From a virus, in the IMG/VR virus record IMGVR_UViG_3300047650_000023: a stretch of DNA of 64,000 nucleotides. One strand, written 5' to 3'. The translations under genes were made by a program, and so were the position numbers. The notes beneath the pieces were generated by a model, which was given only the letters and a program-made list of their open reading frames with translations, did not search any database and was not told where the DNA came from. Positions 28,335 to 59,545 of this stretch are shown piece by piece. The stretch's first letter is position 1; each line of letters starts with the position of its first letter.

Positions 28335-28407
28335 ATCAATCGCGTATTTTATGGTATATTTATCACTACATATGGTGGTTTTAATTTAATTTATATACTA
28401 TATATAG
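28335..28407. promoter_or_regulatory. Composite site: 18-bp motif plus tandem NrdR-box-like pair
   Basis: Motif 28335-28352, 13-bp gap, CTACATATGG at 28366, CTATATATAG at 28398. Confidence 0.6.
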
Positions 28408-28419
28408 ACACCATTTCTA

Positions 28420-28830
28420 TCAAATAGACTTCTCCAACTCATCAATTTCAAGTTCAACCTTCTTATCATTTGAAAGAAGACTGTGTAGTTTACTTTCAAG
28501 TGCCTTTAGACGATATTCCTCGTTTTTACGATCAATATTCATAAGTTTTGCTTTCAAATCAGTAATCCAATCATCAATTGAATAACTTGAAATATTATAC
28601 TCATTTAACACGCCCAAATCTTTAGCAGATAAACGATATGCATTAAGCTTAACCATAAGAGTAATAATCTGATCTTTATTAAGCACTTGAATATTAGTCC
28701 TTATTCCATCAATTTCTATAGAGCAATTTGTTATAGGACAAAACTTTTCAGTTGCTTTAAGTGACTTCTTTTTATCCTCAACCTGTTTCTTTAGACTTAA
28801 TATTTTCTTATCATTATTTTCTGTTGCCAT
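28420..28830 (-). CDS. Conserved phage coiled-coil protein
   Basis: 136-aa ORF, TNCSIEIDG..NIQVL. Confidence 0.7.
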   Translation of the reverse strand: MATENNDKKILSLKKQVEDKKKSLKATEKFCPITNCSIEIDGIRTNIQVLNKDQIITLMVKLNAYRLSAKDLGVLNEYNISSYSIDDWITDLKAKLMNIDRKNEEYRLKALESKLHSLLSNDKKVELEIDELEKSI

Positions 28831-28833
28831 TGT

Positions 28834-29880
28834 TTACTTCCACTCCTTAATTATTTCTTTTTTATCGTTATAAGTTACTAAATATTTAGGATTAATTTTA
28901 TTATATACTTGTTCTGGTAATGAGTTTTCGATTATCCTTTCATCCCTATGTCCTTTAATTGTTACATAAACATTATAAGTAGATTCTCTTTTATTATAAT
29001 AAGAATAATCTCTATATCTTTCTATATAGTATCTTACATAATTGTTATTAATTTTAACATAGCACTTATTATGCCAATAGCAATTTTTATTTAATGCTGT
29101 TTTAAAATCATTTAATGTATAATCTAAATATTCATCATATTTAGGTTCTCTCGAAGAATAACTACTACTTTTCAATAATTCATCCATTAAATTAGAATAA
29201 TCTTCAATACATGTCTTATCGATCAAATCAATAATATTACCACTCAAAGATTTAATAGGAATAATTTTATTATAATTTGCGTTTTTATCATAGAAAAAGT
29301 ATGTTTTAGTTTCTTTTTTGTCTTCATTATTTTCATAAAATCTTCCTAAATATATTAACGCATTATTATTATTTGATTTATATGTTCCACCTAAAATTAA
29401 ATTTTTACCTTCAAATTTTTTATTTTCATGTCTTAATATATTTAATTCGGCTATTTCCTTATAATCTGGTGATAAAGTAGGAACAAGTATTAAATCTTTA
29501 CCATCCCATCCATAAATAAAATCACCCTCAAGCCCCTTGCCTTTAATTGAGTTAGCATTTTCAAGTATGTAAAGTAAATTTTCAATTGTAATCTCAAACT
29601 CAAAATTACGAGGATCATAAACCCTTACATAAGCTTGTCGATGATTCCAATCACAAACATAATCACCAACCTTCTTATTAAGAACAAATCCTGATGTTGG
29701 TTCATTCTTATATTCTTGTTGATCAATCTTTTCATCTCGCCAACTATTCCAAGATGCTTCTTTCCTAAGTTTATTTTTCTGATCGTAATAGATTACATAT
29801 GCCAACTGTCCTGTATATGTATCTGATCTGTTTTGAAATCCCACCTTAATTCTTTCAGGCAAAAATATTGTTGTTTTCAA
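28834..29880 (-). CDS. Conserved phage hypothetical protein
   Basis: 348 aa; KVGFQNRSDTYTGQLAYVIYYD..KLRKEASWNSWRD. Confidence 0.8.
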   Translation of the reverse strand: MKTTIFLPERIKVGFQNRSDTYTGQLAYVIYYDQKNKLRKEASWNSWRDEKIDQQEYKNEPTSGFVLNKKVGDYVCDWNHRQAYVRVYDPRNFEFEITIENLLYILENANSIKGKGLEGDFIYGWDGKDLILVPTLSPDYKEIAELNILRHENKKFEGKNLILGGTYKSNNNNALIYLGRFYENNEDKKETKTYFFYDKNANYNKIIPIKSLSGNIIDLIDKTCIEDYSNLMDELLKSSSYSSREPKYDEYLDYTLNDFKTALNKNCYWHNKCYVKINNNYVRYYIERYRDYSYYNKRESTYNVYVTIKGHRDERIIENSLPEQVYNKINPKYLVTYNDKKEIIKEWK

Positions 29881-29892
29881 TTCTATCCTCCT

Positions 29893-30462
29893 TTAATTAT
29901 TAAATTTTACGTTATTTAGTATTTGATAAAGTTCTCTAATAACTCTTGCATCATAAAGTGAATTATGTTTATCTCCTTGAATTGTTTTGTCTTTATAAGC
30001 ATTATATAAAATTTCTTCTCTTGATTTATCAAAAGCTTCTTTTAAAGAACAATTATATTTTCGTGCAATATCTTGATTAATATCATAACACGCAGAACAT
30101 ACATTCTTGGGCAACTTAAAAGCATTACCAAATAAATCTATAAATAATACCATATCATAATGACAAACATCTGAAACTAATTCCACGTTATCAAATTGTG
30201 CAAACCAATTTCCTAAAACTTTTGAAATTTCAAATTTACCACCAATATGATAATTAGGAATATATGTAGATTCTCTTTTCTGCCAATCTTTCATGTAGAG
30301 ATTCTTTATAACATTTTCTTTAATCCATGTGTCACATTAATCTTCTTTATAATCTATCAATTCTGCATAAAATTTTCTATTATCTTCTGATACCAATCCT
30401 ATACTAATAAGTGTTGTATCCTTATGTAATCCTGTAAATTCTGTATCAAAGAATATTTTCAT
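29893..30462 (-). pseudogene. DEDDh 3'-5' exonuclease family gene with in-frame TAA at 30337-30339
   Basis: [22 protein letters not shown]...DYKED*CDTWIKENV runs in frame into the ORF ending HNSLYDAR. Confidence 0.8.
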
Positions 30463-30593
30463 ACAATTCTTGTTTCCACATTCCCACATTTATTACATTT
30501 ATATTCAACTAACTTTTGCATACCGTCATTAATCAAATGTGATAATAGATATTCGTAATCGTGTTTACAAAATAACTTATTAAAAAACTTCAT
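30459..30593 (-). CDS. 44-aa small phage protein
   Basis: [13 protein letters not shown]...CNKCG; TGA overlaps the next ATG. Confidence 0.6.
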
Positions 30594-30639
30594 TGTGTCC
30601 TTTCTTAAAATCCTAATCAATTGTAGATTTGATTATAGT

Positions 30640-57549: not shown

Positions 57550-57558
57550 AATTACACC

Positions 57559-57819
57559 TCACACTAAACTTAATAAAGCACTAATTCCAAAACCAATAAA
57601 TCCCCACTTTAATGGCTTACGAAAATTAAATATTAAGCAGAAAAATCCAACTGCAATAACAATAATACTAACATATACTCCAATTTCACCTATCATAGAA
57701 ATTTTATCAAGTAGCCATGAACTATCGCCATACATATTAGGATCAAGATTTGGTTTTCCAAATGTACTCCAATCAAACCATTTACCGTTATTAACATAAT
57801 TTTGAACAGCATTATCCAT
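57559..57819 (-). CDS. Small 2-TM membrane protein (pilin-like)
   Basis: Start MDNAVQ at 57819 after SD GAGGTG; two hydrophobic helices. Confidence 0.6.
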   Translation of the reverse strand: MDNAVQNYVNNGKWFDWSTFGKPNLDPNMYGDSSWLLDKISMIGEIGVYVSIIVIAVGFFCLIFNFRKPLKWGFIGFGISALLSLV

Positions 57820-58050
57820 TATAAACACCTCTATATCGGTTATACTATTATTAATAAAAGGAGATGAATTAAATGCAAATAATAGGAGCAATTCTACTTG
57901 GTCTTGGTCTTTTAAGCTTAGGATTAAAATTATTTTAATAATAAATCTTGAAATTTGTAACATTTTCCTTTTCTTTGCATATAATATCGTATGCGATATT
58001 AAATATAGCCCACTTACAACCTCTTAAATTACAACCCTTAGAACAGAATT

Positions 58051-58347
58051 TTATCGATCATAATCTTCCAAATCCATAATACTTTTTAATAATTCTTCTG
58101 AATTAATGTTATTTATTTTGACATTATCAGGAGAATTTTTTATTGCTTTATCTATCTCTAATTTTATGTATTCCTTTATTTTAGAAAAATCTTGAATATT
58201 ATTTTTAATATTATCTTTATCATTCCGAATAAGTTTGATTACATACTTACTAAAATTTGGTACATTGTTTTCATCCTCTACAAAGTCATAAATATCAAAA
58301 TCTTTTTGAGTGAATGATACTGATTTAGTTTTTATATTCCTAGCCAT
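58051..58347 (-). CDS. ParR-like ribbon-helix-helix adaptor
   Basis: TKSVSF...IYDFV...NFSKYVIKLIRND; overlaps the parM stop. Confidence 0.7.
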   Translation of the reverse strand: MARNIKTKSVSFTQKDFDIYDFVEDENNVPNFSKYVIKLIRNDKDNIKNNIQDFSKIKEYIKLEIDKAIKNSPDNVKINNINSEELLKSIMDLEDYDR

Positions 58348-59272
58348 TTAAAATTCCTCCAATTTTATAATAAGCATTTGCATTATCCCACACAGCATAC
58401 TTAGAAACAATAGCGTTTGGTATTTTTTCTTTTATCACTTTTTCAAGAATTAATGAACCACCTCCAGTAAAAGCAATTTCTAAACCATTTAAACTCCAAT
58501 TACATTTTTTTGCTTCTTCAAGAATTCGATCAATTTGACTTTTTAAAACATAATTAATAATTTCAGATATCTTTTTTTTAGTTTTATCATCTCCGTAATA
58601 TTCATCATTTAAAAGATGTGATATTTCATAATCCTGATAATTAGTTTGAAGTTGTTTATTTAATTCTCGTTTTAGCTTAGCTAAAAGAATATTACCTCCT
58701 TCATTAATAGTAAAAACTGTTTCTTTAATCGGTTTTAACTTTCTATACACAGCTCCGTTAATATTTAATCCACCACAATCTATTACAGCAATTAGTCTAT
58801 TCATATTGCGATCTGGATTTTGATAAACATATCCTATTGACTCTGGAAATACTTTTACATCTATTAAATTAAATTTTTTACGTTCATTATTAATTTTCAT
58901 ATCTATATATCTTTCTTCTAAAAGATAATTCTTATATTGTTCTCTTGCTTCATGATTCACAAATGTTAGCAACGGACATCCTGTTATTACTCTTACATCA
59001 TTTTCTTTGTCAATCATTTTTCCAATAGCTAAATACATAGTCATTCTATGATTAATTTTTGCCTTACTCAAATCATAATCATTATTACTTACTTCTTCGC
59101 CAATAAGATATTTAACACCTTTATGTTCTACTAAATAAGTGTTTCCATTAATAATTTCATCTGAATCAGTTATCTCTACTTTAGTTTTTACATAGAATTG
59201 TTTTTCCCCTTTTTCAGTATTTACTACTTCCTTTGTTGCATCTTTTCCCATATCAATTCCTGTATAAAACAT
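58340..59272 (-). CDS. parM: ParM/StbA actin-like partition ATPase
   Basis: GIDMGKDATK, VFPESIG, VIDCGGLNIN and FTGGGS actin motifs. Confidence 0.9.
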   Translation of the reverse strand: MFYTGIDMGKDATKEVVNTEKGEKQFYVKTKVEITDSDEIINGNTYLVEHKGVKYLIGEEVSNNDYDLSKAKINHRMTMYLAIGKMIDKENDVRVITGCPLLTFVNHEAREQYKNYLLEERYIDMKINNERKKFNLIDVKVFPESIGYVYQNPDRNMNRLIAVIDCGGLNINGAVYRKLKPIKETVFTINEGGNILLAKLKRELNKQLQTNYQDYEISHLLNDEYYGDDKTKKKISEIINYVLKSQIDRILEEAKKCNWSLNGLEIAFTGGGSLILEKVIKEKIPNAIVSKYAVWDNANAYYKIGGILNG

Positions 59273-59435
59273 AAAACAAACCTCCATTCTACTTGTTATG
59301 AAAATTATTAACTTTAATAATAGTATAGCAAGTAAAGTTAATAATGTTACTAATTTTCATAATTTTTTAGAAATTTTTAAAGGCTTGTCCTATATTGTTA
59401 TCATACCATATATTGGTTATAATTTAAATATGAAA

Positions 59436-59474
59436 ATAGTAGTAACTACTTCACTTAAAAGTAGTTACTACTAT
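59436..59474. repeat. 16-bp perfect inverted repeat (terminator or operator)
   Basis: ATAGTAGTAACTACTT-7nt-AAGTAGTTACTACTAT. Confidence 0.75.
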
Positions 59475-59545
59475 AAATCAACAATTTGGTGAGAGTTTTA
59501 TATCTATATATAGTATCTTATTATTTAGATTTATACTATATATAA
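59473..59545. promoter_or_regulatory. Composite site: 18-bp motif plus tandem NrdR-box-like pair
   Basis: ATAAAT-CAACAA-TTTGGT at 59473-59490, 13-bp gap, CTATATATAG at 59504, CTATATATAA at 59536. Confidence 0.55.

Follow-up and report, generated by a model that had tools for sequence, protein, structure and literature searches.

Tandem NrdR-type boxes held 13 bp from a gene-junction palindrome probably tie some genes of SPbeta-like phages to the nucleotide state of the host

Here we describe a composite intergenic module in a 63.9-kb fragment of an uncultured virus (IMG/VR record IMGVR_UViG_3300047650_000023; this whole stretch of DNA is called the window below). In the module, two tandem boxes of the type that the dATP/ATP sensor NrdR recognizes at ribonucleotide reductase (RNR) promoters stand at a fixed distance from a short palindrome. 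Six such modules are present in the window and the same architecture recurs in a family of large temperate phages of Bacillota. The boxes have the sequence of NrdR operators, their spacing is conserved, four of five bacterial genomes examined that carry related prophages have the same box pair at their own RNR genes, and the module-bearing phage contigs have no recognizable NrdR gene. From these features we infer that the phages probably tie some of their genes to the nucleotide state of the host.

All genes of the window lie on the minus strand. Read along this coding strand, each module consists of a distal box, a proximal box that starts 31 or 32 bp further on, 13 nt, an 18-bp palindrome (ATMAAW-N6-WTTKAT), a ribosome-binding site and an ATG, with 20-190 nt between palindrome and start codon at five of the sites. 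An earlier note on this DNA had listed five composite sites (s1 to s5), with boxes 31-32 bp apart and a motif-to-box gap fixed at 13 bp. All five lie exactly where it placed them, with box spacings of 32, 31, 32, 32 and 32 bp and the 13-bp gap at each. A relaxed scan brought to light a sixth module that was absent from that list and shares the geometry of the other five (spacing of 32 bp), the gap being 13 bp in all six.

The NrdR operator has been defined as a pair of partially palindromic 16-mers with a linker of 15-16 bp, in which C4, A6, A8, T9, T11 and G13 are highly conserved and C4 and G13 are critical for NrdR binding (PMC13584703). Nine of the 12 module boxes keep all six of these positions, two keep five and one keeps four, and all six linkers measure 15-16 bp. 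The resemblance proposed by the earlier note was also borne out by a position weight matrix (PWM) trained on 10 boxes upstream of RNR genes from five bacterial genomes, with no phage sequence among them: the module boxes score like bacterial RNR operators, 9 of 12 falling within the range of the real operators (8.8-20.1), and the eight best 16-mers of the 64-kb window lie in the modules, the third best being an unpaired box in the intergenic region of s5. Where the modules depart from the definition is in their location, since NrdR operators are expected in the promoter region of an RNR operon, where they overlap the RNA polymerase site or the transcription start, and we found neither an RNR gene nor an NrdR gene in the window. 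The modules are flanked instead by a ParM-like gene, by genes of unknown function and by the approach to the replication block, and the claim that no nrd gene adjoins the sites thus holds for the flanking genes and for the window as a whole.

The window has a G+C content of 27%, and 35 single boxes with all six conserved positions were found in it against approximately 19 expected. A strict tandem pattern gave 8 strand-matches against 0.75 expected. As judged from 300 first-order Markov randomizations of the window, pairs with six of six positions in both boxes were observed three times against 0.01 expected, and pairs with six positions in one box and at least five in the other were observed six times against 0.52 expected. 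Nor do the boxes occur at random offsets from the other copies of the motif. Around 81 palindrome-like copies, a box with all six positions was found at a gap of 13 bp five times and at 44 or 45 bp, which corresponds to the distal boxes, four times, all other offsets being singletons; all of the pairs lie exactly 13 bp from a palindrome.

Megablast against phages revealed no close relative of the window by DNA, and none was found with a 753-aa window protein as query or with the ParM-like protein against genome and viral contigs. The closest relative that we reached is represented by two phage-like contigs, C10 (66 kb) and C119 (173 kb), of a mixed metagenome bin (G001, CALBXN01, labelled Treponema sp.), whose DNA polymerase III (PolIII) is 77% identical to that of the window. 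Taken together, these two contigs have the look of a single SPbeta-like phage akin to that of the window, and the bin as a whole contains two NrdR genes and several NrdD genes. The relative has four modules whose geometry is identical, and one further tandem pair in it lacks a clear palindrome. Two of its modules are syntenic with those of the window (s2 with C10:20821 and s3 with C10:18374) and bracket a D12 methyltransferase block as s3 and s2 do, while the methyltransferases are only 44% identical.

Scanning more widely with a composite pattern (distal ATATAG, 23 or 24 nt, ATATRTAG, 13 nt, AYMRAW-N6-WTYKAW), we obtained matches in 99 stretches of viral contigs, mostly contigs of 45-170 kb, and in 18 stretches of bacterial genomes, in prophage-like regions. 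Among 47 non-redundant copies, the conserved positions that the pattern does not force are A3 and C4 of both boxes and the GTg flank, and the resulting 16-mer is atACtATATATAGTgt. The linker and gap sequences are not conserved in these copies; the earlier statement that the 13-bp gaps share no sequence holds within the window, whereas across the family a weak A/T bias is seen. In a control scan in which the gap was left free, from 0 to 30 bp, 58 distinct sequences were recovered with a box spacing of 31 bp in 39 and 32 bp in 19. The gap was 13 bp in 53 of them (91%), 12 bp in three, 14 bp in one and 23 bp in one. That 53 of 58 sequences have a gap of exactly 13 bp indicates that the spacing is under selection. 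The order of module and gene is less constant: with the caveat that open reading frame (ORF) calls around metagenomic modules are heuristic, we counted 19 copies as boxes-palindrome-gene (++), 14 as palindrome-boxes-gene (--), six as apparently convergent (+-) and two as -+. The neighbouring genes across the family are varied, and include C5 methylases, Sak4-type ATPases, a dUTPase, a deoxyribosyltransferase, tail proteins and a lysin.

The named isolates among the genomic matches all belong to the Bacillota (Bacillus sp. FJAT-22090, Metabacillus arenae, Paenibacillus sp. XY044, Thermoanaerobacterium thermosulfurigenes and two Lachnospiraceae isolates). The remaining matches are metagenome bins, mostly of Clostridia or Bacillota, with three labelled Bacteroidales, Gastranaerophilales and Treponema. 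We scanned five isolate genomes of 2.4-7.9 Mb for tandem CWATATATWG pairs with up to two mismatches and found only 4-6 pairs per genome, part of them the prophage modules. In four of the five genomes a further tandem pair stands ahead of an RNR gene of the host, either class I/II (with a B12 riboswitch) or NrdD, and the other pairs comprise one in a DnaA-box-like repeat region and three or four without explanation. The pair among DnaA-box-like repeats (TTATCCACA and variants) is in Bacillus sp. FJAT-22090 (L179; G002:C10:11526-11566) and hints that this bacterium has NrdR sites in a region of oriC/dnaA type. A bacterial nrdD gene on another contig of the mixed bin has the classical layout, with TTGACA, a box in the spacer, TATAAT and a second box 31 bp on.

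We searched 34 phage contigs that bear modules, of which nine have a completeness of at least 90%, and no NrdR scored above the family threshold in any of them; each has 1-6 tandem pairs as compared to none with a control pattern. With no NrdR gene of the phages' own, a host protein would therefore have to bind the boxes. The boxes are invariant between phages of Bacilli and of Clostridia, which is more readily expected of a universal host factor than of a phage regulator that co-evolves. In pneumococcus, the NrdR regulon is strongly induced in lytic phage infection (PMC6755750), and the signal that NrdR reads therefore exists and changes during infection.

Taken together, we consider it fairly likely that the modules act as host NrdR operators which gate the downstream genes by deoxynucleoside triphosphate (dNTP) status. 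The earlier proposal that host NrdR co-regulates loci other than nrd genes is supported in this respect by the operator definition, the PWM scores, the host RNR operators and the lack of a phage NrdR; that NrdR binds, in which direction it regulates and what the palindrome does are predictions drawn from the DNA. According to this model, an SPbeta-like temperate phage of Bacillota would have recruited NrdR-type box pairs, each of them fused, at an invariant 13 bp, to a short arm-N6-arm palindrome of the kind found at many gene junctions of the phage family. The rigid three-site module that results fills the intergenic space ahead of a gene block. In the window, such blocks are the one for replication, the one that ends in the D12 methyltransferase, the genes that follow it, the partition gene of ParM type and some small genes. 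At high dATP, for instance in a quiet lysogen or in the early phase of infection, NrdR with dATP and ATP would occupy both boxes, and RNA polymerase would be blocked either in the manner of a classical operator or by a roadblock that stops read-through from upstream genes. As DNA synthesis by phage or host drains the dNTP pool, NrdR would leave and the downstream block would be expressed. A second factor would bind the palindrome, and the fixed spacing of 13 bp suggests that NrdR and this factor would work as one complex.

Several observations weigh against this model. NrdR is regarded as specific for RNR genes, and none of the module genes is one. No conserved sigma-A -35/-10 occurs at a fixed place in the module, promoter-like matches being at shuffle level, and a simple promoter-operator picture misfits some copies, since boxes and palindrome can come in either order relative to a gene and the module is at times found where the flanking ORFs seem to converge. 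Repression at high dATP is also an odd logic for replication genes, and NrdR repression alone leaves the rigid link to the palindrome without explanation. 

Terminators flank only three of 33 modules. Together, the filled junctions, the missing fixed promoter, the few terminators, the two orders and the varied target genes fit best with a symmetric protein platform inside co-directional gene arrays, on which NrdR beside a palindrome-bound partner would block initiation or read-through into the following block.

The palindrome is more widespread than the boxes. Approximately 42 intergenic copies (at most one mismatch) lie between a stop codon and the next ribosome-binding site in the window, and only six of these have boxes. 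It is a 6-N6-6 element with a variable centre that resembles a recombinase core in shape only, and its arms vary (ATCAAT in the window, ATAAAA elsewhere). Among known Bacillus regulator motifs, the ComK AT-box and those of CodY and of the Fnr type do not seem to fit it. SPbeta (NC_001884) has no tandem boxes, and the palindrome pattern matches it 15 times as compared to once in a control. Thirteen of these matches read exactly ATAAAA-N6-TTTTAT (positions 2628, 12495, 24127, 39885, 44416, 57147, 95562, 99497, 113663, 116414, 128076, 131390 and 132746). They lie mostly at gene junctions, including junctions within the late operon, and are frequently extended to TTTTATTCA; some copies are annotated merely as stem_loops, and one stands directly ahead of the methyltransferase gene mtbP.

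Two identities for the palindrome were rejected. The first is SPBRE, the operator of the SPbeta master repressor MrpR/YopR, for which ten targets have been identified by sequencing of affinity-purified chromatin (ChAP-seq) (PMC10516654). Seven of the ten targets (aimR, yopM, yonT, yonP, yonX, yopV and yosX) have no palindrome nearby, and only yorE, yorM and yorZ do; since the palindromes do not coincide with the MrpR targets, the palindrome is not SPBRE. The second is a promoter for the YonO RNA polymerase, which is dismissed because YonO of SPbeta uses a single late promoter (PMC5467207).

Among the alternatives to gating by host NrdR, the one that fares best, although we think it unlikely, is that the modules are decoys: consensus-grade sites would soak up scarce host NrdR as the phage genome multiplies, de-repressing the host RNR operons and raising the dNTP supply. 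In support of this, phage boxes are often closer to the consensus (no mismatch) than the RNR operators of the same genomes (one or two mismatches), and the module has no conserved promoter and is indifferent to the orientation and kind of its neighbour gene. The relative also carries an nrdD gene, on C119, that starts directly behind the preceding ORF with no boxes ahead of it, while the only good tandem pairs of that contig are more than 100 kb away. A sponge, however, would be expected to offer more than 1-6 pairs per genome, and would need neither a 13-bp link to a second motif nor exact placement at junctions. The synteny of two sites in a diverged relative likewise points to a local function.

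It is also conceivable, and in our view quite unlikely, that host NrdR serves in a three-site nucleoprotein switch as an architectural partner of machinery acting on the junction palindromes, rather than as a simple repressor. If so, cassette exchange, DNA processing or insulation would be licensed by dNTP status, and NrdR would have a role outside RNR control.

We are very doubtful of a more specific proposal along these lines, in which the palindrome is a recombinase or DNA-processing core and NrdR, at its fixed distance, shapes a complex for dNTP-dependent exchange. The rigid spacing, the arm-6-arm shape of the palindrome, the orientation independence of a module without promoter or terminator and the presence of junction palindromes throughout SPbeta-like phages are all consistent with such accessory sites. 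The arms, however, are only 6 bp long, and the recombinase-fold protein of the window (51840-52892) matches only the MrpR core-binding domain PF22822. MrpR of SPbeta is a repressor that has lost its recombinase function (PMC10516654), and Pfam scans of the window ORFs returned no integrase or resolvase catalytic family. The suggestion of the earlier note that the boxes turn palindromes into attI-like sites thus gained no support from any test, the window having no catalytically plausible recombinase, although the rigid spacing and the missing promoter do fit an architectural role.

We give just as little credence to the idea that a phage protein unrelated to NrdR binds boxes that mimic NrdR sites, or that the 70-bp unit is a promoter for a phage transcription machinery. 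These phages encode many small proteins of unknown function and SPbeta has a YonO-type RNA polymerase (PMC5467207), which would provide candidates. Against this, the symmetry of the boxes, which are 16-mers, is unlike that of a promoter; the boxes have exactly the sequence and linker length of the RNR operators in the same genomes and do not vary across phages of distant hosts; and SPbeta, with its single late YonO promoter, has no tandem boxes. Finally, to a chance origin from TATATA-rich strings in a genome of this composition we attach practically no weight, even with single boxes in excess of expectation, as it is rejected by the pair statistics, the offset test, the gap scan and the preservation of the architecture in viral and bacterial stretches alike.

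The individual modules, all on the minus strand, differ in the quality of their boxes and in their surroundings. Module s1 (28335-28410) has its distal core at 28398-28407, its proximal core at 28366-28375 (32 bp), its gap at 28353-28365 and its palindrome, ATAAAAtacgcgATTGAT, at 28335-28352. Both boxes keep all six positions and score 12.1 and 12.5, within the top 0.013% of the window, and the module precedes a gene at 27883-28275 and, further downstream, the replication block. Module s2 (35097-35171; distal core 35159-35168, proximal core 35128-35137, 31 bp apart, gap 35115-35127, palindrome 35097-35114, ATAAAAcctgtcTTTTAT) sits directly after the D12 methyltransferase gene (35175-35900) and before a gene at 34663-35004. 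Its boxes are likewise complete (PWM 15.2 and 13.2), and a sigma-A-like TTGCAA-17-TATAAT lies downstream of it at 35065-35037. Module s3 (37579-37654), ahead of a gene at 36816-37535, combines the extremes. Its distal box (37642-37651) is degenerate, with four of six positions and in effect a 1-bp deletion, and its proximal box (core 37610-37619, gCACAATATATAGTGT) agrees with the NrdR consensus at 15 of 16 positions and is the best match of the window (PWM 18.5); the gap is at 37597-37609 and the palindrome, ATCAATgttggcTTTTAT, at 37579-37596. Module s4 (39321-39396; distal core 39384-39393, proximal core 39352-39361, 32 bp apart, gap 39339-39351, palindrome 39321-39338, ATCAATtaagatATCTAT) has two complete boxes (PWM 12.5 and 10.0) and precedes an ORF at 39064-39315 whose likely start is the ATG at 39300. 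The sixth module (11972-12047; distal core 12035-12044, proximal core 12003-12012, gap 11990-12002, palindrome 11972-11989, ATAAATgacatcTTTGAT) overlaps a junction formed by the end of one ORF (11986-12699) and the start of the next (11464-11985). Its distal box is complete and the fourth best match of the window (PWM 13.4), and its proximal box keeps five positions.

Module s5 (59473-59548; distal core 59536-59545, proximal core 59504-59513, gap 59491-59503, palindrome 59473-59490, ACCAAAttgttgATTTAT) has a T at position 4 of its distal box, which keeps five of six positions, and lies upstream of a ParM/Alp-like actin gene (58340-59287, ParM/ALP_N match). The region ahead of this gene (59288-59552) is the most elaborate: after s5 come a terminator-like hairpin with a 17-bp stem and a T-run (59436-59474, minus strand), which abuts the s5 palindrome, a third, unpaired NrdR-type box (59406-59415, minus strand) and an ORF of 23 codons; this ORF abuts the start of parM, which lacks a Shine-Dalgarno sequence of its own. 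The core of the unpaired box, CAATATATGG, keeps all six positions (PWM 13.8) and overlaps an extended -10-like sequence (TGGTATGAT). The loci of ParM homologues (at most 46% identity) have no boxes, and one has iteron-type parC repeats instead (L001:5560-5760); we therefore rejected the boxes as a partition centromere.

As judged from its predicted proteins, the gene content of the window is that of an SPbeta-like temperate phage. The record from which it comes has a CheckV completeness of 39%, and the ParM-like protein is also recorded on a contig of 187,759 bp. The gene at 51840-52892 encodes a homologue of MrpR/YopR-type master repressors; the replication block comprises Sak4, DnaB, primase, an exonuclease, a 1309-aa PolIII alpha subunit, an exoV-type helicase and NAD ligase; and a MazF-like toxin and a GmrSD-like nuclease are encoded alongside the ParM/Alp-like actin. 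The small genes include homing-endonuclease types (two HNH_3 and one SegE-like GIY-YIG with NUMOD motifs) and a Lar-like restriction-alleviation protein. Sigma-A consensus promoters (TTGACA-17-TATAAT) are accompanied by a repeated motif, AAATAAATTAA, upstream and downstream or inside the spacer, at 53519-53674, 50198-50384, 54452-54907, 42327-42413, 40452-40587, 32554-32687 and 10247-10424 (minus strand). The motif is also frequent immediately ahead of ribosome-binding sites and is a candidate operator for the MrpR-like or an Xre-type repressor of the phage. Two intergenic stretches of 250-290 bp with few ORFs (31305-31598 and 41594-41842, minus strand) have a clearly raised G+C content relative to their surroundings and look structured; no Rfam family matched in the window, these stretches included.

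NrdR operators are known at RNR promoters, including those of nrdAB, nrdHIEF and nrdDG in E. coli, of nrdRJ and nrdAB in S. coelicolor, and in L. monocytogenes (PMC9110341, PMC12051234, PMC13584703). The module shares with them the two partially palindromic 16-bp boxes (acaCwAtATaTwGtgt), the conserved C4, A6, A8, T9, T11 and G13 and the 15-16 bp linker, and its core is the same as that at the RNR operons of genomes with related prophages. It differs in that it lies on phage DNA, in several copies per genome and not ahead of RNR genes, is fused at 13 bp to a phage-specific palindrome, has no fixed relation to a -35/-10 and occurs in either order. Another comparison is offered by the Xer sites cer and psi and by integron attI, where a recombinase core is accompanied by accessory sites for host regulators (ArgR and PepA at cer, ArcA at psi). 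As in these systems, a short arm-spacer-arm core adjoins, at a defined distance, the predicted sites of a host regulator that senses a metabolite. In contrast to them, the module has 6-bp arms, and no active recombinase was identified in the window; the accessory sites of cer and psi also lie much further from the core than do the module boxes. Like SPBRE, the module is a repeated intergenic element of SPbeta-like phages, and the window encodes an MrpR-like protein; unlike SPBRE, its palindrome has counterparts in SPbeta that lie apart from the MrpR ChAP-seq targets. Finally, the PeSL cassettes (early promoter plus stem-loop), reportedly described by Arbiol et al. in 2010 between small genes of T4-type phages, resemble the module as short repeated regulatory units that a large phage places at many junctions between its small accessory genes, yet they contain a recognizable host promoter, recruit no host repressor and have no paired boxes.

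Full-text literature searches on NrdR together with phages or prophages returned no account of its boxes at phage loci other than RNR genes, or of the module. Large temperate Bacillota phages of a whole family thus carry the NrdR operator, with consensus-grade boxes locked to a second motif with single-base precision, at loci other than RNR genes. Since cultured hosts with such prophages exist (Paenibacillus, Metabacillus and Thermoanaerobacterium), regulation by NrdR is directly testable, and through the module the junction palindrome, found in the model phage SPbeta as well, also becomes accessible to study. If NrdR binds, these phages would read the dATP/ATP sensor of the host to time replication, partition, methylation, tail or lysis genes, or would manipulate that sensor, and phage and host would then be coupled by a regulatory link of a new class, with NrdR taking on a new biological role.

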